From: Rickettsiales bacterium
GTDB taxonomy: Bacteria; Pseudomonadota; Alphaproteobacteria; Rickettsiales; UBA3002
NCBI GenBank assembly: GCA_044239745.1
Contig: JBIIAV010000002.1
Location: 12,583-76,582 of the forward strand
Length of the DNA: 64,000 bases
Direction of reading: 5' to 3'
Under the pieces are notes generated by a model. It worked only from the letters and a program-made list of their open reading frames with translations, was not told the origin of the DNA and ran no database searches. Below are positions 1,567-59,952 of this stretch, piece by piece (positions within the stretch are counted from its first letter, which is position 1; each line of letters begins with the position of its first letter). The position numbers were made by a program, and so were the translations under genes.

Positions 1567-4500
1567 GCCAGCAGCTCGACATTGCCGCCGATGGCAGCGG
1601 TGTTGATGGTGGTGGTGCGCTCGCTGATGAAGCGCAGCAAATAATGCGGGCCGCCCGCCTTGGGGCCGGTGCCCGAAAGCCCCTCGCCGCCGAACGGCTG
1701 CACGCCCACCACCGCGCCCGTCATGCTGCGGTTGACGTAGCGGTTGCCCACCGGCGCTTCGTCCAAGATCGCTTCCATCTTGGCGCGCAGGCGCGTATGC
1801 AGGCCGAAGGTCAGGCCATAGCCGCTGCCGCGGATCTCGCCTAAAATCTTGGGCAGCTCTTTCGATTTATACGTGAAGAAATGCAACACGGGGCCGAAGA
1901 TCTCCTCGCTAAGTTGGCTGGGCGAATCAAGGCCGAACACGTGCGGCGGCACGAAGGTATCGTCCGATGGGGGCGTTGCCCCCAAACCCCCTCCGCTTCG
2001 CGGCTCGCCTTCGGCTACGCACGGCTGAATCTCGCACGCATGGTGCCAGCGCGCGACGCGCTTCATCGCCCCGATATGGGCAAGCAGGCCTTGCTGCGCC
2101 CCACGGTCGATCACCGGACCGATATCGGTCGCAAGGTCGCGCGTGTCGGCCACCCGCAATTCGTCCATCGCGCCCACCAGCAAATCGCGCAGATGTTGCG
2201 CCACTTCTTCCTGCACAAATAGCATCCGCAAGCTGGAGCAGCGTTGCCCCGCCGAGCCGAACGCGCTCGTGATAATATCGTCGCAGGCCTGTTCCAGCAG
2301 CGCCGAGGAATCGACGATCATGGCGTTCATACCGCCCGTCTCGGCGATCAGCGGCACGATCGGGCCGTCCTTTTCGGCCAGTGCGCGCGCAATATATTTC
2401 GCAACGGTCGTCGAGCCGGTGAAGCAGACGCCCGCCACCTGCGGTGCCGTCACCAACGCGGCGCCCACCGTCTCGCCCGCGCCGCAGGCCAGCAGCAACG
2501 CGTCGGTCGGGATGCCCGCCTCGTGCAGCACGGCCACCGCTGCGGCAGCGATGCGCGGCGTTTGTTCGGCCGGTTTGGCGACCACACTATTGCCCGCAAC
2601 CAAGGCCGCCGCCACTTGGCCGATGAAGATCGCCAGCGGGAAATTCCACGGGCTGATGCACACGAACACCCCGCGGCCATGCAGCGTCAGCACGTTGCTT
2701 TCGCCGGTCGGCCCGTTCAGCGTTTGCGGCGCAAATATGCGTTCGGCCTCGTTGGCATAATAGCGGCAGAAATCGACCGCCTCGCGCAGCTCGGCCACGG
2801 CATCGGCATAGGTCTTTTTGGCTTCCGTCACGCATAGGGCGATCATGGCGTCGCGGCGTGCCTCAAGCAGGTCGGCGGCGCGGCGCAAAGCGGCCGCACG
2901 CGTCGCAACGGGGGTCGTGTCCCAGCCATGGAAGGCTGCCTGCGCCCGCGTCACCATCACCGCCGCATCGCTGGCGTGCATGTCCTTGGGTGCGGGTGTG
3001 GGGGTCGAAAAATGCTGCGCAACATGCTGCATGAAATCAAGGCGCACACTGCGGTAACCGAAATCGATGCCGAGCGGATTCTTGCGCGTCGCACCGTAGA
3101 GATCGACCGGCAGCGGAATATCACTCGCCGGTTGTGCGTCGGCGGCGCGCACATGCGCAATCGGGCTTACGGTCAGGTCATCGACCGCCGTGCGTTTATC
3201 CATCAACAGATGCACGAACGAGCTATTGGCGCCATTTTCGAGCAGCCGGCGGATGAGGTAGGCGAGCAGATCCTTGTGCGCCCCGACCGGCGCATAGATG
3301 CGCACGCGGTAGCCGGTAGCATCGTGATGCGCCGCTTGCGTAGGCTCCGCCGCCCCCTTAATCGACACAAGCTGATCATGCAGGCTTTCGCCCATGCCGT
3401 GCAAACGTTGGAACTCATACTGCGCGGGCACACGTTGCTGCGCCTCGGCCATGGTGATGATGGTGGCCACCGTCAGCGCGTTATGGGTCGCAAATTGCGG
3501 GTAAATCGTATCGCCCGCCGCCAATAATTGCTGCGCACAGGCGAGGTAGGAAAGGTCGGTATATTCCTTGCGCGTGAACACGGGATAGCCCGCCAATCCC
3601 TGCATCTGCGCATGCTTGATCTCGCTGTCCCAATAGGCGCCCTTGACCAGCCGCACCGGAATGCGTCGGCCCAGTTTCTTTGCCAATGCTGCAAGCGTTT
3701 CGGCCACGAACACGGCACGCTTCTGGTAGGCCTGCAACACGAATCCGATGCCCTCGAAATCGGCAAATTCGGGGTCCTCGAGCAGGTTCTTATAGATCTC
3801 GAGCTCGATCTCCAGCCGGTTGGCCTCCTCGGCATCCAGCGACACCGCGATGCGGTGCGCCTTGCCTTCGCGTAGAATATCCTTCAGGCGCGGTAGCAAT
3901 TCGTTCATCACGCGCGCTTCCTGTGTTTGGGCATAGCGCGGGTGCAGTGCCGAGAGCTTCACCGAAATGCCGGGGCGGGCGAACAGTTCCGTCTCCTTCG
4001 TCGCCGCCGCGATTTGGCGAATGCCGGTGAGGTACGATTGCACATAGCCTTGCGCCTGCGTGTCCGTGCGCGCGCCCTCGCCCAAAATGTCATAGGAAAT
4101 GGTGTAGCCCTTGGCCTCGTCGTCCTGCGCTTGTTTGATCGCGTCCGCCACCGTTTCGCCCATCACGAATTGGGTGCCGAGGAATTTCATGCCGGCGCGC
4201 AGTGCTTGCCGGATCACCGGCTCGCCGGAGCGTTTGATGAGCCCGCCGAACCATGCGGCCATCGAATCGCCGGCGTCCAAATCCAGCACCGAACCGGTCA
4301 GCATCAGCGCCCAGGTGCTGGCGTTCACCAGCGTCGATTCGCTCTGCCCCAGATGCTGCTTCCAGTTGCCCGAGGCGAACGTATCCTCGATCAGCGCATC
4401 GGCGGTGCTGCTATCGGGAATGCGCAGCAGCGCCTCGGCCAGGCACATCATCGCGATGCCTTCCTTGGTCGATAGGCCATAGGACTGCAAGAACGCCTCG

Positions 4501-4780: not shown

Positions 4781-4857
<77 letters not shown>

Positions 4858-4874
4858 TCAGCTTAATTTAAATT

Positions 4875-5104
4875 GAAGGGGGCATCGCCCCCTACGCGCC
4901 GCCCATTCACACGTTTGTGATTAGCGTTGCGTAGCGCTTTATGGCGCATCCGCGCGGGAGAGGCGCAGCAACGCGAAGCCAATCACATCGCGCTACGCGC
5001 CGCCCATTCACACGTTTGTGATTAGCGTTGCGTAGCGCTTTATGGCGCGAGCCGCGATAGTGGAGGGGGTTTGGGGGTGATACCCCCATCCACGCGCGAA
5101 GCGC
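4875..5104. repeat. tandem/composite copy of the palindromic-element family immediately 3' of tRNA-Arg
   Basis: GGGGGC-ATC-GCCCCC hairpin at 4878-4892. A 56-bp perfect direct repeat (4892-4947 = 4993-5048, period 101 bp) contains GCGTAGCGCTTTATGGCGC. It ends with GAGCC...GGGGGT-GAT-ACCCCC. Confidence 0.85.
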
Positions 5105-5125
5105 TTATCAACGGCTAGCCTACGG

Positions 5126-10572: not shown

Positions 10573-10630
10573 GAAGGGGCCTCGCCCCTTCGCGAACGCT
10601 GACCCGAGGCTCGCCATGAAGGCTACGCAC
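10573..10630 (-). repeat. intergenic copy of the palindromic-element family (carA leader region)
   Basis: Reverse complement reads GTGCGTAGCCTTCATGGCGAGCCTCGGGTCAGCGTTCGCGAAGGGGCGAGGCCCCTTC. Confidence 0.75.
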
Positions 10631-10653
10631 GCTAAAGTAGGATTCGTTATACG

Positions 10654-11904
10654 ATGACCATGCCGCTGAAACCTGCACCCAACGCCGCCTTACTTCTTGC
10701 GGATGGGACAGTGTTTTTTGGCCAAGGCATCGGGCAAGCGGGCACCACCAGCGGCGAGATCTGCTTCAACACCGCCATGACCGGCTATCAGGAAATCCTG
10801 ACCGACCCTTCGTATGCCGGCCAGATCATCACCTTCACCTTCCCGCATATCGGCAATGTCGGCACGAATGACGAGGATATCGAGAGCCTCGTGCCCGTCG
10901 CCGCCGGACTCATCCTGCGCGAGGCGATCACCGAACCTTCGAACTTCCGCAGCCAAAGCCACCTCGATGCGTGGATGAAAAAGCACGGCCTGCGCGGCAT
11001 CAGCGGGGTGGATACGCGGGCGCTGGCGCGCCATATCCGCATCAACGGCGCGCAGAATTGCGCCATCATCATCAGCGCGCAAGGCGCGCCTAACCTCGAT
11101 AAACTCAAAGCCGCCCTCGAAGCCGCACCCGACATGAACGGCTTGGAATTGGCCGCGCATGTGACGACGAAAGAAGCCTATACGTGGCAAGAGCCGCGCT
11201 GGACATTGGGCGCGGGGCATACGCCGCAAACGCAAGCGGTCGATGCATCGGTGCGTAGCGTAAGCGAGCCGCGCAGCGGCGGGGTCAGCGGCGAAGCCGC
11301 GAAGGGGCAAAGCGCCCCTTCATTGTGCCACGTAGTGGCAATAGATTACGGCGTCAAACGCAACATCCTGCGTTCGCTGATATCAGCCGGCGTGCGCCTC
11401 ACGGTCGTACCCGCCACCGCCACCGCCGAGGAGATCTTGGCCCTCAACCCCGACGGCATCTTCCTAAGCAATGGCCCCGGCGACCCCGCCGCCACCGGCA
11501 GCTACGCCGTGCCCACCATCAAGAAACTGATTGCCAGCAGCAAGCCCCTTTTCGGCATCTGTCTTGGCCACCAGATGCTCGGCATCGCCCTTGGCTGCCG
11601 TACCGAAAAAATGCGCCAAGGGCACCGGGGTGCCAACCATCCGGTGAAGGATCTGGCCACCGGCAAGGTCGAGATCACCTCGCAGAACCACGGCTTCGCG
11701 ATTAGCGATACCAACCTACCCGAGGACGTCGAAGTCACCCACCGCTCGCTGTTCGATGGCACCATTCAGGGCATCCGCGTCGTCGGCAAGCCCATCTTCA
11801 GCGTGCAAGGCCACCCCGAGGCCTCGCCGGGGCCACATGATTCGCACTACCTTTTCCAGCGCTTCGTTCAGTGCATGCGCGCCGATACAAAGAAAGCAGC
11901 CTAA
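10654..11904 (+). CDS. carA: carbamoyl-phosphate synthase small (glutaminase) subunit
   Basis: 416 aa. Conserved N-domain and class-I GATase (GICLGHQ, HGFA, QGHPE). Stop overlaps the carB start (TAATG). Confidence 0.96.
11251..11322 (+). repeat. palindromic-element copy inserted in-frame in the carA interdomain linker
   Basis: GTGCGTAGCGTAAGCGAGCCGCGCAGCGGCGGGGTCAGCGGCGAAGCCGCGAAGGGGCAAAGCGCCCCTTCA. It encodes [24 protein letters not shown]. Confidence 0.75.
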
Positions 11905-17482: not shown

Positions 17483-17490
17483 TTTTTTAG

Positions 17491-17671
17491 TAGGGGACTC
17501 TTTGTCCCCTACGCTTCGCTGACCCCCAGCCGCTTCGCGGCTCGCCATGGAAGGCTACGCACCGCCTACTCAAACGTTTGGATTATCCGTGCGTAGCGCT
17601 TTATGGCGCGAGCCGGAGCGAAGCGAACGAGGGGGAACGGAGTGGGGGCGAAACGCCCCCATAGCGAAGCG
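17491..17671. repeat. full inverted dimer of the palindromic-element family between convergent genes
   Basis: Left hairpin GGGGAC-TCTTT-GTCCCC. Left arm CCGCTTCGCGGCTCGCCATGGAAGGCTACGCAC. Loop CGCCTACTCAAACGTTTGGATTATCC. Right arm GTGCGTAGCGCTTTATGGCGCGAGCCGGAGCGAAGCG. Right hairpin GGGGGC-GAAAC-GCCCCC. Confidence 0.85.
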
Positions 17672-17679
17672 AACGACTC

Positions 17680-41532: not shown

Positions 41533-42981
41533 CTAGTGGTGGGCAGTGGATGCGGTGACCGCAGCCGTGATGGATGCAGGTAGCGGGCGCGGTTTCTCGA
41601 TGCGGCCGACGATGGGCAGCACCACCAAGAAATGCGCGAAGTAGTAGCCGGTGCACAGCAACGAAAGCAGCGGGAAGATGCCTTCCGGCGGCTTGCTGCC
41701 GCAATAGCCGAGGATTACAGCGTTGATGGCGAACAGCCAGAAGAACCAACGATAGATCGGGCGGTAATTGCTCGAGCGCACGGGGCTGGTATCCAGCCAC
41801 GGCAACGCGAACAGGATGAGAATGGCGCCGAACATGGCGAGCACCCCACCGAGCTTCGACTCAATCACTGCGCCTGCAAAGCCTGTCACCGTCAGCACGG
41901 TCGCAAGCGTGAGCATCGACGCGATACACATCACGCCGCATGGTTTCTTGGGCAGGAACGAAGCCAGCGCCCCCAGAATGCCGTTGGTGCCAAGCAGTGC
42001 GCGCACCAGCGTCGCGTAGCGCAGCACCGCGGTCAGCCCGAACAGGCCAAGGCCTAAAATCCATAGCGGGATATCAAACGTGATGGCGCGCAGGATCGCG
42101 TAGAACGGCAGGAAATACCATTCCGGCACGATGTGCTTGGGCGTCACCAGCGGGTCAGCGGGGATGTAGTTATCGGGGTGGCCGAGATAGTTCGGCGCGA
42201 AGAACACGAATGCCGCGAACACCAAGAAGAACACCCCGAACCCGAAGAAATCTTTCGAGGTATAATACGGGTGGAACGGAATTTGGTCCTGCGGGCCCTT
42301 CACATCGATACCCGTCGGGTTGTTGCTGCCATGTTGGTGCAGCGCCATCAAATGCATCATCACCACGCCGACCAGCACGAACGGCATCAGAAAATGCAGC
42401 GCAAAGAAGCGGTTCAGCGTCGGGTTATCGACCGAGAAGCCGCCCCACAACCACGCCACGATATCCTCGCCCACCAGCGGGAAGGCCGAGAACAGGTTGG
42501 TGATCACCGTCGCGCCCCAGAAGCTCATCTGGCCCCATGGCAGCACATAGCCCATGAACGCCGTCGCCATCATCAGCAGCAAAATAATGATGCCAAGGAA
42601 CCATAGCAGTTCGCGTGGCCGCTTGTAGGAGCCGAAATACAGCCCGCGCGCGATATGGATGTAGGTGACGATGAAGAACATGCTGGCGCCCACCGCATGC
42701 ATGTAGCGAATGAGCCAACCGTAATTGACGTTACGCATAATCTGCTCGACCGAATCGAACGCGAGCGCGGTGGAGGCGGCATAGTGCATGGCAAGGAACA
42801 GGCCGGTCAGGATCTGGCTGACGAGCATGACGCCCGCAAGCGAGCCGAAGTTCCAGAAATAGTTCAGGTTGCGCGGCGTCGGGTACTGAACCAGCGAGTT
42901 GTTCAGCATCGAGAAAATCGGCAGACGATATTCGATCCAACCGACGATACCGGGTTTTTCTTCCTGTGGTGCGTGGGCCAT
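41533..42981 (-). CDS. petB: cytochrome b of the bc1 complex (with an unusually long hydrophobic insertion after the PEWYFL motif)
   Basis: 482 aa. His ligands in the [13 protein letters not shown] and [20 protein letters not shown] contexts. [13 protein letters not shown] motif. Confidence 0.94.
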
Positions 42982-43427
42982 TAGCTTACCCCTTTTCCTT
43001 TGTTATCGATCATTCCTACGCTTCTGGCGGTATGCAAAATTTGATTTTTCAATTCGCCGATTTCGGTCGATTCCGTGTTGACGATGGTGAGCATCTGCTT
43101 CACGACGCTTTTAAGTCCCTCGCGGGTCGCTTTCGGCATATCCCTATCCTTCTCTGAAGCCGTCAGCACATGCATGATCGCGGCACAGAGGTAGTGCGGG
43201 TCTTTTGCATCGGCGTCACCGACTGCGTTGAACGCATCTAAACCCCAACTGCTCATGCCATAGCCTTCGCGCAAGCCGCCGGTTCTCGCCCCGCCCGACA
43301 GTACATGGCTGGCCACGGCGCGCATTTGTATCACTACGTCCGAACGTTTGAATAGCGCTTCAAGCCGCAGCTTGAGAGTCACATCGACCGGCGCAGAATA
43401 CAGATTGGGTGAGAAGGCAATGGTCAC
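42981..43427 (-). CDS. hypothetical 148-aa soluble protein inserted between petA and petB
   Basis: Intact ORF filling the whole petA-petB gap. GTG start 3 nt after the petA stop. Its TAA overlaps the petB ATG (TAATG). Visibly AT-richer than its neighbours. No TM segments or known motifs recognised, and only a weak ribosome-binding site. Confidence 0.5.
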
Positions 43428-44138: not shown

Positions 44139-44672
44139 ATGCTCAATCTCGTCCTCTATCAACCGGATATTCCCCAAAATCTAGGGGCTTGCCTGCGGCT
44201 TTGCGCATGCATGGGCGCCACGGTGCACATCATCGAGCCCTGCGGCTTTGTGCTGGATGATACCAAAATTCGTCGCGCCGGCATGGATTATATGCATAAA
44301 GTCAACTATGTCCGCCATCTCGATTGGCAGGCCTTTCTAAACTATCGCCATGCAGCGGATGAAGCCCGCGTAGCCTCCCATGGCGAGCCGCGTGCGGAGG
44401 GGGGAAGCAAAGCGAGGGGGGCGATGCCCCCTTCACGATTACTCCTACTCGAGACGGATGGCGCCACCCCCTACACCGAGATTTCCTACCAACCCACCGA
44501 TTACATCGTCTTTGGCCGCGAATCGGCCGGCACGCCGGCAGCGCTCTATGCGCAGATGGACACCACCCTCACCATCCCGATGGTGGCGGGCATGCGCTCC
44601 TTGAATGTCGCGATGAGCGCTGGCATGGTGGTCGCCGAAGCCTGCCGCCAAATGAATTGGAAATTTGCATGA
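44139..44672 (+). CDS. trmL: tRNA (cytidine/uridine-2'-O)-methyltransferase TrmL (SpoU/TrmH family)
   Basis: MLNLVLYQPDIPQNLGACLRLCA..., FGRESAGTP, IPM..GMRSLNVAMSAGMV. Roughly 24 aa longer than canonical because of the repeat insertion. Confidence 0.9.
   Translation: MLNLVLYQPDIPQNLGACLRLCACMGATVHIIEPCGFVLDDTKIRRAGMDYMHKVNYVRHLDWQAFLNYRHAADEARVASHGEPRAEGGSKARGAMPPSRLLLLETDGATPYTEISYQPTDYIVFGRESAGTPAALYAQMDTTLTIPMVAGMRSLNVAMSAGMVVAEACRQMNWKFA
44367..44434 (+). repeat. palindromic-element copy inserted in-frame in trmL
   Basis: CGCGTAGCCTCCCATGGCGAGCCGCGTGCGGAGGGGGGAAGCAAAGCGAGGGGGGCGATGCCCCCTTC. It encodes ARVASHGEPRAEGGSKARGAMPPS. Confidence 0.75.
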
Positions 44673-45766
44673 GCCTTGACGAGAAAAAAGCCACCGCCGC
44701 CGCATGGTTTCGCACCCTGCGCGACGATATCTGCGCCAAATTCGAGACGATCGAGGCGGAATACGCCGCCGCACATCCCGTAGCGGATTCGAGCATGCGT
44801 AGCGCGGATGGCCCGCGCGAGCCGGAGGCCGTTAGGCCGAACGATGGGGGGCCGGTAGGCGGGGGCGACTTCGCCCCCCGTGGCGAAGCCACCGCACGCT
44901 TCATACGTACTCCGTGGCAGCGCGACGGTGGCGGCAGCGGCGAGATGTCGATCATGAAAGGCCGCGTGTTCGAGAAGGTCGGCGTCAATATCTCGGTCGT
45001 TCAAGGCACATTTTCAGAGCAGTTCCGCCACGAGATCCCTGGTGCTAGCGAGGACCCGAATTTCTGGGCGGCGGGCATTTCGCTCGTCGCGCACATGGCA
45101 TCGCCCCTCGTGCCGGCGGCACATATGAACACCCGCATGATCGCGGTGGGCGAGCGCCCTACCCGCCTGTGGTTCGGCGGCGGCGGCGACCTCAACCCCA
45201 TGGTCGAGAATTCGCAGGACACCGCCGATTTCCACGCCGCCTTCAAAGCCGCCTGCGATGGGCTGAATACCGCAGCACATGCGAGCAGCGAGCCATCCAG
45301 CAACTACTACGACGCCTTCAAGCAATGGTGCGACGAATATTTCTTCATCCCCCACCGCAACGAGGCGCGCGGCGTCGGCGGCATTTTCTACGATTATCTC
45401 GGCCTCAACCGCTTCGGGGCGGATACCGCGCCCGTCACCTCCGGCCGCTTCGGCAAGGGCGGGGTCACCGCCGCGGCGACCGCTCACGGCATGCAGCTTG
45501 CCGCCAACGCCGCCATCGACTGGGGGCAAGGGCTTGCCTTCACGCAACAGGTCGGGCGGGCGTTCGCTTCCATCTACCCAGCCCTCATCCGCCGCCATAT
45601 GTTCGAGCCATGGACCGAGGCCGAGCGTCACCACCAACTCGTTAAGCGCGGGCGCTATGCCGAGTATAATTTGCTGTACGATCGTGGCACCCGCTTCGGC
45701 CTGATGACGGGTGGCAACACCGAAGCGATTTTAATGTCGCTGCCGCCCGTGGCTATTTGGGAATAG
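44669..45766 (+). CDS. hemF: oxygen-dependent coproporphyrinogen III oxidase
   Basis: From ATG 44669 (ATGA overlap with the trmL stop). Motifs WQRDGGG, H.NTR, WFGGGGDL, HRNEARGVGGIF, RGRY.E.NL.YDRGT.FGL and PP...W. Roughly 65 aa longer than the E. coli enzyme. Confidence 0.92.
   Translation: MSLDEKKATAAAWFRTLRDDICAKFETIEAEYAAAHPVADSSMRSADGPREPEAVRPNDGGPVGGGDFAPRGEATARFIRTPWQRDGGGSGEMSIMKGRVFEKVGVNISVVQGTFSEQFRHEIPGASEDPNFWAAGISLVAHMASPLVPAAHMNTRMIAVGERPTRLWFGGGGDLNPMVENSQDTADFHAAFKAACDGLNTAAHASSEPSSNYYDAFKQWCDEYFFIPHRNEARGVGGIFYDYLGLNRFGADTAPVTSGRFGKGGVTAAATAHGMQLAANAAIDWGQGLAFTQQVGRAFASIYPALIRRHMFEPWTEAERHHQLVKRGRYAEYNLLYDRGTRFGLMTGGNTEAILMSLPPVAIWE
44795..44890 (+). repeat. palindromic-element copy inserted in-frame near the hemF N-terminus
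   Basis: ATGCGTAGCGCGGATGGCCCGCGCGAGCCGGAGGCC...GGGGGCGACTTCGCCCCC...GGCGAAGCC. It encodes MRSADGPREPEAVRPNDGGPVGGGDFAPRGEA. Confidence 0.7.
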
Positions 45767-45771
45767 TTTTT

Positions 45772-45806
45772 GCCGCGGCTTCGCCGCAGGGGGCGATGCC
45801 CCTTCA
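45772..45806. repeat. short element fragment / hairpin between convergent hemF and ampG
   Basis: GCCGCGGCTTCGCCGCAGGGGGC-GAT-GCCCCTTCAG. Likely also acts as a bidirectional terminator. Confidence 0.55.
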
Positions 45807-57382: not shown

Positions 57383-58012
57383 CTATCTGTTTCCGTGCGG
57401 TTTAAGTGATAATTGCGATATCGAAATAATGCTGGATATCGCATGCGTTTTACTTGGTTTTGCGGTGCTTTGATAGTCCCATGATTCACTGGCTTTTTTC
57501 AATTCCTCGGCAGCGTTTTCGCCTTTGGGAAAGAGGGCGATGCCCCCTGCCCCCATCAGCCGATGCGCCATAGCGAACAGACCATCCAGCGCCGTCAACG
57601 CCCGCGCCGTCACCACATCGTATTGCCCGACGAGCTCGGCGATATCGATCGCCATGACCGTAACATTGGAAAGACCAAGACGATGCTTTGCTTCGGTAAG
57701 GAACGCTGCCTTACGCTGGTCCTGCTCGACCAAGGTAACGAACAGTTGCGGACATTGTATCGCAATCACCAACCCCGGTAAGCCAGCCCCACTTCCCAAA
57801 TCGACAAGGGTTTTGGCATTTTTGGGAATCAACGGAACCAATTGCAAGCTATCATCGATATGGCGCGACCAAATATCGGCTTGTGTTGCAGGGCCAATCA
57901 GATTGATCTTCGCGTTCCACTTTAAAAGCAGCGCGACATAATCGGCCATGGGTGAAAATGTTTCACGTGAAACATTTTGTGGCGATGATGTTTGTTGATC
58001 AACACGAAGCAT
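57383..58012 (-). CDS. rsmG: 16S rRNA (guanine527-N7)-methyltransferase
   Basis: 209 aa. VSRET...LLLKWNAKINL N-terminus. SAM motif DLGSGAGLPG. Confidence 0.93.
   Translation of the reverse strand: MLRVDQQTSSPQNVSRETFSPMADYVALLLKWNAKINLIGPATQADIWSRHIDDSLQLVPLIPKNAKTLVDLGSGAGLPGLVIAIQCPQLFVTLVEQDQRKAAFLTEAKHRLGLSNVTVMAIDIAELVGQYDVVTARALTALDGLFAMAHRLMGAGGIALFPKGENAAEELKKASESWDYQSTAKPSKTHAISSIISISQLSLKPHGNR
57959..57974. promoter_or_regulatory. parS: parS centromere site 1 (inside rsmG codons for VSRET)
   Basis: Perfect TGTTTCACGTGAAACA. The palindrome extends to 24 bp (57955-57978). Confidence 0.9.
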
Positions 58013-58061
58013 GGTGTCTACATAATCAATCTGACGCGTCTTGTCATCTCGAATCTAAAAA

Positions 58062-58077
58062 TGTTTCACGTGAAACA
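58062..58077. promoter_or_regulatory. parS: parS centromere site 2 (rsmG-mnmG intergenic)
   Basis: Perfect TGTTTCACGTGAAACA. The palindrome extends to 26 bp (58057-58082). Confidence 0.9.
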
Positions 58078-58089
58078 TTTTTGGATGGT

Positions 58090-59952
58090 TCAGGCCGCGG
58101 ATTGACGGCGACGCATATAGGTCATGATGGCGGTGATAGCCGCTGGCGTGACGCCCGGGATGCGGCTGGCTGCGCCCAACGTGGGTGGTCGAGTACGTTT
58201 CAATTTGTCACGGATTTCGTTGGAAAGTGATCCGACCACATCGTAATCGACCGACTCTGGGATGACCAATTGTTCGTCCATTTTAAAGGATTCGATATCG
58301 GCCTGCTGACGTGCAAGATAGGATTTATAGACCGATTCGATCTCTATCTGTTCGCGAATATCCGGTCGGAAGGATTTCAATATTGGCCATATCTCTGATA
58401 GGCGATCGAAGCTGATGGTCGGATATGCCAACAGATCAAGAATGGAACGTTTGACACCGTCCTGATTAATTTGGAGTCCGACGTCGACTGCTTTATTGGG
58501 TGAAATTGTTTCACGTGAAACAATTTGCATCGCGTCTTCGAGGAGAGAATGTTTCACGTGAAACATTTTTTGACGTTCCGGACGGACACAGCCGATGGAA
58601 ATACCAATCGGAGTGAGGCGAAGGTCGGCATTGTCGGGGCGTAAGCTCAACCGATACTCCGAACGCGACGTGAACATACGATACGGCTCTTGGGTACCGA
58701 GGGTCGTGAGGTCGTCGATCATCACGCCGATATAGGCTTGCGAACGATCGACGATAAAGGGGTCGGAGCCAGAAGCGGCGAGGGCGGCATTAAGCCCCGC
58801 GACAAGCCCTTGGCCACCAGCTTCTTCGTATCCGGTGGTGCCATTGATCTGGCCGGCAAGGTATAAGCCTTTGACTTTTTTGGTTTCTAAGGTTTGTTTC
58901 AGTTCGCGTGGGTCGACATAATCATATTCGATGGCGTAGCCAACGCGGATGATATGGGCGTTCTCCAACCCCGGGATGCTGGCGATCATGGCGCGTTGAA
59001 CTTCCTCGGGGAGGGATGTCGAGATGCCGTTGGGGTAAACGGTGGTATCGTCCAAACCCTCCGGCTCGAGGAAAATCTGATGGCGCTCGCGGTCAGCAAA
59101 ACGGGTGATCTTATCCTCGATCGAAGGGCAATAGCGTGGGCCCGAGGACTTGATCTGTCCCGAATACATGGGCGAACGATGGACGTTGTTACGAATAATT
59201 TCGTGAGTTTTTTCAGTCGTATGTGTGATATAGCAGGTAATTTGCGGCACCGTTACGTGATCCGTCATATAAGAGAAGGGGGCGGGTGGATTATCGCCCA
59301 TTTGCGGGGTGAGGATGCTCCAGTTTATCGTTGTTCCATCCAACCGGGCAGGGGTGCCGGTCTTCAATCGACCGACGGTCAGCCCCAGGGCGCGAATGGA
59401 ATTGGCAAGGGCGATCGAGGGTTTTTCACCGACACGGCCGGCGGGCGTTTGCGTTTCACCACAATGGATGAGGCCATTCAAGAATGTTCCGGTCGTAAGT
59501 ACCACGCGGCCGGTTTGATAGGTGGTTCCGGACGCCCCGACAACGGCCACAACCGCGCCGTTTTCCATGACAATATCATCGGCCGCATCCTCGATGATGG
59601 TGAGGTTCGCATACTCGCTAAGCAAGGCCTGTACTGCGTTACGATAGAGTTTGCGATCGGCCTGCGCGCGCGGCCCACGCACCGCCGGCCCCTTACTGGC
59701 ATTGAGCATTTTGTAATGGATGCCGGCGCGATCAATAGCGCGTCCCATGACACCGTCGAGGGCATCGATCTCGCGTACCAAGGTGCCCTTGGCGATGCCG
59801 CCGATGGCGGGGTTGCACGACATTTCGCCCACCGTGTCGCGCTTATGGGTCAGCAAACAGGTGGTGGCGCCAAGGCGCGCGGCGGCCGCGGCAGCCTCGG
59901 TGCCGGCATGCCCGCCGCCAATGACGATGACATCAAATAATTTGTTATTCAT
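58090..59952 (-). CDS. mnmG: tRNA uridine-5-carboxymethylaminomethyl synthesis enzyme MnmG (GidA)
   Basis: 620 aa. [19 protein letters not shown] motif, [30 protein letters not shown]. Confidence 0.96.
58507..58522. promoter_or_regulatory. parS: parS centromere site 3 (inside mnmG, read as VSRET)
   Basis: Perfect TGTTTCACGTGAAACA within the 24-bp palindrome AAATTGTTTCACGTGAAACAATTT. Confidence 0.9.
58550..58565. promoter_or_regulatory. parS: parS centromere site 4 (inside mnmG, read as MFHVKH)
   Basis: Perfect TGTTTCACGTGAAACA, 43 bp from site 3. It is translated in a different frame from site 3. Confidence 0.9.

Follow-up and report, generated by a model that had tools for sequence, protein, structure and literature searches.

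A GTAG-tagged multi-hairpin repeat family in uncultured lake Alphaproteobacteria, with a long-form copy in frame within hemF

Palindromic repeats that lie in frame within protein-coding genes are textbook knowledge for Rickettsia and have sporadically been noted for REPs, and the classical bacterial MITEs (ERIC, Correia/NEMIS, RUP, Nezha, Chunjie) are small, non-coding, structured elements that show occasional in-frame ORF fusions. The paradigm for in-frame palindromes is provided by the Rickettsia palindromic elements RPE-1 to RPE-10 (Ogata et al. 2000, 2002; as described in PMC10969869 and PMC3733652). RAYT (TnpA-REP) transposases are believed to move the GTAG REPs and REPINs in single-stranded form (PMC2817692, PMC3116915, PMC3733652, PMC8266576), and those reported include intragenic copies in some species, e.g., Opitutus terrae and Thauera (PMC3733652). 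Di Nocera et al. 2013 (PMC3733652) described both GTAG and CGTC REPs within the genes of several species and argued that they are located in linkers and loops. A 2024 review regarded a mechanism similar to that of the RPEs in other prokaryotes as merely conceivable (PMC10969869), and our literature search found no description of the repeats of the lineage considered here.

The window, i.e., the whole stretch of 64,000 nucleotides that was analysed, contains two overlapping neighbours, in the second of which the element under study resides:

44139..44672, forward strand: trmL, SpoU-family tRNA methyltransferase (PF00588), 177 aa
44669..45766, forward strand: hemF, oxygen-dependent coproporphyrinogen III oxidase, 365 aa, the host gene of the insert
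44786..44892, forward strand: long-form repeat unit in frame within hemF, spanning HemF residues ~D40-T75, delimited by sequence, nhmmer, fold and alignment

The trmL stop and the hemF start overlap in the ATGA at 44669-44672. HemF was identified by matches to PF01218 (E=2.8e-80) and to HemF in the PDB (~1e-53); PF01218 was the only Pfam domain found in it, and neither the splicing domains nor the catalytic RNA fold of an intein or intron were found (the insert is ~36 aa). The initial annotation had placed a segment of about 96 nt at 44795-44890 in frame in hemF, and both its sequence and its quoted translation agree exactly with what we obtained: position 44795 lies 126 nt (42 codons) past the ATG at 44669, which puts the segment in frame, its nucleotides run ATGCGTAGCG...GGCGAAGCC, and the encoded peptide MRSADGPREPEAVRPNDGGPVGGGDFAPRGEA is immediately N-terminal to FIRTPWQRDGGGSGE, ahead of the TPWQRDGGG motif seen in the translation, just as had been noted. 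The repeat reported at these coordinates is real, but the unit is slightly longer (~44786-44892), with its last minihairpin ending at 44892.

An alternative start at the ATG at 44795 was considered and rejected, as the preceding 35-residue N-terminal helix is conserved in the clade and modelled with a pLDDT of 96-98. This helix, M-x-LDEKK..WFR.LRD.IC..FE.IE, is common to the 118 close HemF homologues of our comparison set and reads MSLDEKK..WFRTLRDDICAKFETIE in the window. It lies upstream of the segment and fixes the hemF start at ATG 44669, and HemF must therefore be read through the segment. We infer from the sequence that HemF is translated through the element, with SADGPR and EPEAVRPNDGGPVGGGDFAPR among the predicted tryptic peptides of the insert region. 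The locus is found in lake-water metagenome assemblies, where hemF with the insert was recovered in four contigs from different samples and, further, in several sequencing runs. The hemF sequence is colinear on both sides of the insert, and orthologous loci keep the petABC-trmL-hemF-ampG synteny. In these assemblies, contigs end within both the trmL and the hemF elements, sequencing depth is 2-6 fold higher there, and further contigs contain the element but continue into unrelated DNA; among the lake contigs examined, none skips the hemF insert. The hemF insert is no assembly artefact.

The hemF copy, which exceeds the baseline HemF loop by ~36 codons, can be broken down into the following parts:

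44799-44802: GTAG tag
44802-44807/44813-44818: H1, GCGCGG/CCGCGC, seen in the fold
44819-44826: linker GAGCCGGA
44827-44838: H2, GGCC-GTTA-GGCC, seen in the fold
44839-44849: GAACGATGGGG segment, of the GAACGA(G/T)GGGG type
44855-44858: second GTAG
44861-44878: H3, a G5/C5 hairpin, GGGGGCGA-CT-TCGCCCCC, seen in the fold
44880-44892: H4, GTGGC-GAA-GCCAC

Several of its variants recur in dispersed copies: its H1 in L145, its 12-nt H2 in L137 and L142, and 'GCCGGTAGGC' in L100, L106 and L108. Aligned metagenome copies define a generic unit of ~100 nt with the order: optional GATTATCCGT, GCGTAGC, H1, GAGCCGGA, H2, GAACGAGGGGGAGCGGTAGC, H3, (A/T)(C)GC and H4. Of 59 copies, 56 have a GTAG no more than 30 nt ahead of GAGCCGGA, and 36 of the 59 have another one directly before the G-run of H3. 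In the in-gene copies a 'GAT' ~10 nt upstream of GCGTAGC is suggestive of the true 5' end. H3 has the general form GGGGGCG...CGCCCCC, and the minihairpin H2 takes the forms GCGAAGC, GCCGAAGGC, GGCCGNNNGGCC and others. Across copies, 21 variants were seen for H1, 31 for H2, 37 for H3 and ~50 for H4, nearly all of which still form hairpins, and three-base loops such as GAA (C-GAA-G type triloops) recur among them. The mean best stems of H1-H4 are 3.9, 2.5, 6.7 and 4.3 bp, as against 2.6, 1.7, 3.5 and 3.0 bp in shuffles. The folding energy of the single hemF copy is no better than that of shuffled sequence (z = -0.43 as DNA, -1.04 as RNA), and because these z-scores are not significant, the structural case rests on the stem-preserving variants across copies.

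Two profiles were used to delineate the family. One, seeded with six copies recognised by eye and run with nhmmer over the window, matched the hemF copy at 44786-44884. The other was built from 53 metagenome-contig copies, leaving out the window and hemF sequences to avoid circularity; it matched the hemF copy at 44790-44890 (E=1.3e-9) and a further copy at 17578-17669 at 5e-21 (5.4e-21). The former of these independent matches bears out the initial description of the segment as a longer element copy near the HemF N-terminus, and the similarity of the hemF segment to the repeat family exceeds chance. In all, nhmmer finds ~11 copies in the 64-kb window, four of them in frame within genes (putA, carA, trmL and hemF), and the pattern GGGGG-N2-8-CCCCC was observed seven times against an expectation of 0.46. 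The copies outside genes include:

4873..5111: composite array, made up of full as well as partial units and following closely on a tRNA gene, in which a 56-nt stretch is exactly duplicated, 101 nt apart
10584..10636, reverse strand: partial unit upstream of carA, found by nhmmer
17489..17676: inverted intergenic pair between convergent genes, made up of 17489-17571 (reverse) and 17578-17676 (forward, long form), whose GTAG tags point towards each other across CAAACGTTTG as in a REPIN-like or tail-to-tail dimer
45774..45802, reverse strand: partial unit with H3 and H4 only, GGGGCATCGCCCCC-TGC-GGCGAAGCCGC on this strand, found by eye and compared with L125 and other copies

The last of these occupies the 50-nt gap between the stops of the convergent hemF and ampG and went unreported by nhmmer because it is too short. 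A scan of metagenome contigs with one exact 22-base pattern, GCGAGCCGGAG-N6-11-GAACGAKGGGG, recovered 64 loci, with ~56 true elements and 7 chance matches within unrelated genes; ~75% of the ~56 are intergenic, and about one-fifth of the long-form copies lie inside genes. No match to the family profile was obtained in 1.27 Mb of more distant alphaproteobacterial control loci, which came from a contig scan with the HemF alignment and, among the matches listed, hold only ~50%-identity HemFs from other orders. Rfam yielded no family over the window besides one tRNA, and none for the repeat; a terminator scan found no sense-strand terminator formed by the in-gene copies. A profile of the encoded peptides (padded to 44 aa) searched against a set of 5.8 billion proteins returned one small spurious ORF, a 35-aa low-complexity query making for an insensitive method. 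The repeat is a dispersed family across a lineage of uncultured lake Alphaproteobacteria that are often labelled 'Rickettsiales bacterium'.

The other in-gene copies of the window are:

44364..44435, forward strand: short-form copy in trmL, 24 extra residues ARVASHGEPRAEGGSKARGAMPPS, GTAG at 44370-44373 (nhmmer 44357-44444, E=1e-15)
11243..11322, forward strand: copy in carA, ~24 residues in the linker between the N-terminal and glutaminase domains
1959..2032, reverse strand: copy in putA, ~19 residues CVAEGEPRSGGGLGATPPS in the aldehyde-dehydrogenase part

The trmL copy lies ~360 nt upstream of that in hemF, so that two overlapping neighbours each carry an insertion, as had been pointed out from the start; the in-frame copies in carA and putA, like the three HemF insertion hot spots discussed below, are additional observations of the present analysis. 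TrmL without the insert has 151-154 aa in L084-L086, and in the window protein 24-28 residues are added between positions 68 and 71 of the E. coli protein (query 69-96 versus chain 68-71). The E. coli CarA aligns around its insert in the same way (query 196-224 versus chain 186-192). Elsewhere in the lineage the MnmC inter-domain linker has been hit twice, once in each orientation (L145 and L138), and further in-gene copies are found in two ABC permeases and one bc1-assembly chaperone. The in-gene copies of CarA, TrmL, MnmC and the ABC permeases sit in linkers or loops. In the long form, the two GTAG tags place TAG stops in two of the forward frames, leaving open one forward frame (GAG CCG = Glu-Pro) and three reverse frames, and the open forward frame is the most hydrophilic (GRAVY -1.3). 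It is used by ~10 of the 12 in-gene long-form copies, and all four in-gene copies of the window use this (E P) frame. A filter for harmless peptides would produce such a frame bias, with no function being required.

For the history of the HemF loop, we compared 118 HemFs of 310-442 aa, which are the nearest proteins and come from uncultured organisms labelled 'Rickettsiales bacterium' or 'Alphaproteobacteria bacterium'. The loop at site 1, from the N-terminal helix to FTRTPW, has 8-12 residues or fewer in 66 of these, 14-18 in 16 and 20-78 in 36. A second variable loop follows NTRMIxVG(D/E), with a baseline of 3-4 residues in 96 proteins and up to 50 in others, and a third follows ACDxxD, with a baseline of 7-8 in 75 and a maximum of 51. 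By these alignments, the HemF of this lineage has three recurrent insertion hot spots. The inserted peptides reuse the motifs RSxDGRREPE..., EPRSGGGLGAMPPS, SEPSASxAARSVGQQTNAEQ, MSPRSGAxxSPxGDLAEQ and PSPNPLPQGERA, pointing to the involvement of several palindromic families. The nearest HemF (P0008, locus L089) carries an unrelated palindrome at site 1 and the long-form element in the same frame at site 2, where CTGCGTAGCGGCGATGGCCGCCGCGAGCCGGAGCGAAGCGAACGAGGGGGCGCGGTAGCGGGGGCGTCTTCGCCCCC encodes LRSGDGRREPERSERGGAVAGASSPP; L110 likewise carries the long-form element at site 2. The site-1 insert peptide of the window is common to only two relatives, P0002, the second nearest, and P0033, which ranks 80th of 117 in HemF distance. 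No clade smaller than the whole tree unites the window protein with P0033, and 81 members of that tree have a short loop (at most 17 residues). At site 1, no fewer than three insert types are present within the 7-member clade that surrounds the window protein. The site-2 element of L089 and L110, the non-monophyletic carriers at site 1 and the mixed insert types within one clade show independent insertion events, and the comparison indicates that the hemF segment is an insert rather than an ancestral part of HemF.

The HemF alignment and structural mapping that the initial annotation had proposed as checks concur with this. The 8-12-residue loop of 66 of the 118 HemFs lacks the extra residues, and the alignment of solved HemF structures to the window protein begins only at residue 74. 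That the extra residues be conserved in HemFs lacking the repeat, which had been named as the finding that would speak against an insertion, is not what we see: P0002 and P0033 alone carry the peptide, and its conservation is at the DNA level. An AlphaFold model of the window HemF built from the 118 sequences (mean pLDDT 88.4, pTM 0.89) has a helix at 3-35, a coil with a pLDDT of 48-61 at residues 41-70 and a strand at 79-84, and in Foldseek it scores a target-normalised TM of 0.81-0.84 to bacterial and Leishmania HemF structures. The insert is accordingly modelled as low-confidence coil with the HemF fold kept, and is predicted to form a disordered surface loop between helix 1 and strand 1.

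The divergence of the inserts differs from that of their surroundings. For hemF, the insert shares 84% identity with its counterpart in L084 and 89% with that in L085, as against 70-77% in the flanks; for trmL, identity with the L089 copy is 96% in the insert and 80-83% in the flanks. Counting codon changes among residues conserved between pairs, we found 0 of 19 and 0 of 20 synonymous changes in the hemF insert versus 114 of 265 and 94 of 230 in the flanks (43% and 41%; Fisher p about 5e-5), and 1 of 22 in the trmL insert versus 43 of 125 in its flanks (34%; p=0.004). Where the hemF inserts differ in amino acids, a +1/+2 indel pair has changed the reading frame over a short stretch (AVRPNDGGPVGGG versus AEGRTRGSGSGG). 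In trmL, the copies of the window and of L089 look orthologous and have private features in common; they differ by swapped H1 loop variants (TCCCAT versus GAA). In the within-species variant P0001 the window residue D59 (GAT) is replaced by E (GAG), which is the family consensus. This want of synonymous drift in the inserts, set against 34-43% change in the flanking conserved codons, shows that they behave as repeat DNA rather than as an old protein segment. It is stronger than simple neutrality predicts and needs recent insertion, gene conversion or nucleic-acid selection; insertion that was recent or took place repeatedly would fit the pattern, as would gene conversion between copies, and there is room for selection on the nucleic acid.

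Taken with the dispersal of the family, these observations make it probable that the hemF segment is a non-autonomous, GTAG-tagged, multi-hairpin palindrome, a selfish element of REP/RPE-like character that is tolerated in a surface loop. The repeat would have spread through the genomes of the lineage, one copy landing in the DNA for the HemF loop that joins helix 1 to strand 1. Its persistence there could be explained by an insert length that is a multiple of three, placement in the element's only stop-free forward frame (GAG CCG = Glu-Pro), a hydrophilic encoded peptide rich in Gly, Pro, Arg and Glu, and the position of the HemF loop on the surface, where a disordered extension may be tolerated. 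HemF with the insert probably works normally, and the insert itself is in all likelihood neutral baggage and not a module with a function. Movement may have been by a Y1/HUH RAYT-type transposase acting on single-stranded hairpins, and gene conversion among copies may keep them alike. A tblastn search of 632 kb of lineage DNA from incomplete genomes with the E. coli RayT (from NC_000913) brought up neither a credible RAYT nor any other transposase; it gave weak matches only, which fell within pth/ychF, a methyltransferase and a histidine kinase. Filled and empty trmL or hemF sites, which are 20-30% diverged, show no target-site duplication when compared. It is the distribution of the copies by itself that suggests mobility.

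The paucity of synonymous change (none or one in the inserts as against a third or more of the flanking conserved codons) could also be expected if the hairpin array were functional as nucleic acid within the coding region, perhaps as a site at which mRNA or single-stranded DNA is bound or processed; purifying selection would then maintain the array, with the reading frame a secondary, dual-coding matter; the possible effects might be on trmL-hemF expression, mRNA stability or the tuning of replication. The private features and excess identity shared by the trmL copies of the window and L089 (96% versus 80-83%), the retention of stems through many compensatory variants and the recurrence of C-GAA-G type triloops are in line with this, and REPs are known to bind proteins and affect mRNA (PMC3733652). 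Yet the units occur in any context, be it intergenic, in both orientations or in many unrelated genes, and the swaps of loops and stems among family variants (TCCCAT versus GAA in trmL) are what gene conversion or re-insertion would be expected to leave. Moreover, the fold of the single copy does not surpass shuffles, and neither an Rfam family nor a sense-strand terminator was found. We hence regard such a role as unlikely. If true, it would amount to a dual-coding device, with cis signals on single-stranded DNA or mRNA (for protein binding, processing or pausing) and an open frame shaped for a harmless disordered peptide; such structured nucleic-acid signals, embedded in protein loops throughout the lineage, would explain both the compensatory stems and the absent synonymous drift.

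It is considerably harder to credit that the encoded Gly/Pro/Arg/Glu-rich loop was co-opted as a tether, an interaction site or an aid to solubility for HemF and the other decorated proteins. The preference of ~10 of 12 in-gene copies for one frame and orientation and the expansion of the same HemF loop in 36 of 118 relatives might suggest so, but the forward bias is largely forced by the two GTAG tags closing the two other forward frames, frame shifts within the element make the peptides differ (AVRPNDGGPVGGG versus AEGRTRGSGSGG), it is the DNA and not the protein that is conserved, the region is predicted to be disordered, and unrelated palindromes fill the same loop in close relatives. Two other HemFs do have a very similar peptide at the same place, and metagenome assemblers do break at these repeats, which would be the grounds for taking the extra residues to be long established in the HemF of this lineage, or else to result from chimeric assembly at the repeat. 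Most orthologues are without the insert, the same DNA occurs at many unrelated loci, the carriers are not monophyletic, the hemF flanks are colinear within conserved synteny, and independent samples and runs recover the insert; these refute that reading, to which we assign next to no probability.

The preferred reading, of a selfish palindrome tolerated in a protein loop, places the element close to the RPEs in behaviour. Like these, the lake element is a short multi-copy palindrome with a sizeable fraction of copies in frame in unrelated housekeeping genes (HemF, TrmL, CarA and PutA in the window; HemF, MnmC, ABC permeases and the bc1 chaperone elsewhere), where 20-50 hydrophilic residues are added at fold-compatible positions, and both hosts are Alphaproteobacteria. 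The likeness is one of behaviour and not of family membership: nhmmer gave no match in the control loci, which include Rickettsia tamurae (L074) and a MAG labelled 'Rickettsia typhi' (L015). Further, the lake element is G+C-rich (host 61% G+C) and GTAG-tagged, whereas RPEs of the RPE-4/6 type are CGTC-tagged (PMC3733652); it consists of four short hairpins and an RPE of one long one; and its hosts are planktonic lake bacteria with putA, carAB and ABC transporters, whereas RPE hosts are obligate intracellular parasites. With the GTAG REPs and REPINs it shares a GTAG abutting a G+C-rich stem-loop (56 of 59 copies), a high copy number with dispersed, mostly intergenic locations whose neighbouring genes are convergent or co-directional, the formation of inverted dimers around a conserved spacer (17489-17676 in the window) and sub-families with compensatory stem changes. 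In contrast to a REP, which is one palindrome of 20-40 nt, the lake unit of ~100 nt comprises two tandem GTAG-tagged stem-loops and two conserved minihairpins, about one-fifth of its long-form copies are intragenic, and no linked RAYT gene was found in the 632 kb of lineage DNA. It resembles MITEs in being small and structured and in fusing in frame with host ORFs, but the two ends of the single unit (GCGTAGC... and ...H4) do not form inverted repeats with each other, no duplicated target site is seen, and there is no recognisable parental IS. The lake element thus represents a known behaviour in a sequence-unrelated family that is larger and more modular than canonical REPs.

The feature in hemF is real, non-random and part of a lineage-wide phenomenon, with four of the ~55 genes of the window carrying an in-frame copy. 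In practical terms, such repeats break up metagenome assemblies, add to the lengths of proteins and can lead both gene callers and alignments astray in this lineage. More generally, RPE-like behaviour is seen here at high frequency in an unrelated, G+C-rich and apparently free-living freshwater lineage known from metagenomes alone. The repeats may show the filtering of REP-type elements by reading frame, and, as a natural experiment, allow one to ask which loops of a protein can accommodate insertions and what interplay there is between selfish DNA and protein evolution.

The long-form copy of the GTAG-tagged palindromic repeat that lies in frame inside hemF differs between close homologs. Its codon 44843-44845 is GAT (D59) in the window and GAG (E) in P0001 and P0123, both of which share a 90% protein cluster with the window HemF; GAG is also the family consensus (GAACGAGGGGG). 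Within the species, therefore, the insert is polymorphic.

Two further stretches of HemF concern its relation to the repeats:

45404-45532, HemF residues about 246-288: extra segment of ~43 residues (LNRFGADT...GRFGKGG...AANAxLDW)
about 45259-45310: site 3, one of the loops with recurrent inserts (...TAAHASSEPS...), 17 residues vs a baseline of 7

The ~43-residue segment is missing in every solved HemF, and is invariant in length in 117 of the 118 clade members; the structural model shows part of it as a helix, and its confidence dips near residues 261-270. It is a conserved addition specific to the clade and not a repeat. Site 3 of the window HemF resembles a shortened remnant of an SRASEPSAS...QQTNAEQ insert, which is intact in relatives such as L089, the locus of the nearest HemF. 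This likeness suggests that a second piece of repeat origin, now decayed, is present in the window HemF.

Further palindromic families are also translated within HemF loops, namely at site 1 of the hemF of that closest relative (L089:10090-10260) and in the HemF proteins P0006, P0009 and P0010; examples include CCTCCCCCTTTCGGGGGGAGG...CCCCTCCCCCGATGGGGGAGGGG and one encoding PSPNPLPQGERA. The lineage is thus host to several in-frame repeat families. Copies of the hemF element family itself were recovered from other genes of related or metagenome loci:

L138:4162-4271: long-form element, in frame, MnmC inter-domain linker
L145:2003-2116: long-form element, in frame, MnmC inter-domain linker
L085:14981-15057 (-): family hit inside a KdsB-like cytidylyltransferase gene

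The MnmC linker, which joins the methyltransferase domain to the FAD oxidoreductase domain, is hit on two different contigs, with one copy forward and the other reversed. The KdsB-like protein of L086 and L088 has 240 aa and that of L085 has 314 aa; the L085 gene probably represents another in-frame insertion of the element family.

Two other features of the window are recorded here:

42981-43427 (-): ORF of 148 aa between petB (cytochrome b) and petA (Rieske) in the bc1 operon
57951-58575: region between minus-strand ORFs with four copies of a 34-nt motif, at 57951, 58054, 58499 and 58542

The ORF has no Pfam match; L081, L088 and L089 likewise have a called ORF of 143-148 aa at this place, but L085 and L086 lack it, with petA adjoining petB. 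The 34-nt motif is centred on a perfect palindrome, ATGTTTCACGTGAAACAT, and shows no relation to the hemF element; it looks like an operator, present in several copies, to which a dimeric regulator would bind.

Within the repeat array adjoining the tRNA gene at 4781-4854, an exact 56-nt duplication (4892-4947 and 4993-5048, 101 nt apart) points to a recent local event, either duplication or recombination among the repeat units. Short-read assemblies of lake metagenomes (runs X1, X4, X6 and X8) break exactly at the repeats in window positions 44368-44403 and 44796-44850; these repeats probably restrict how long the contigs of this lineage become and how well they can be binned.
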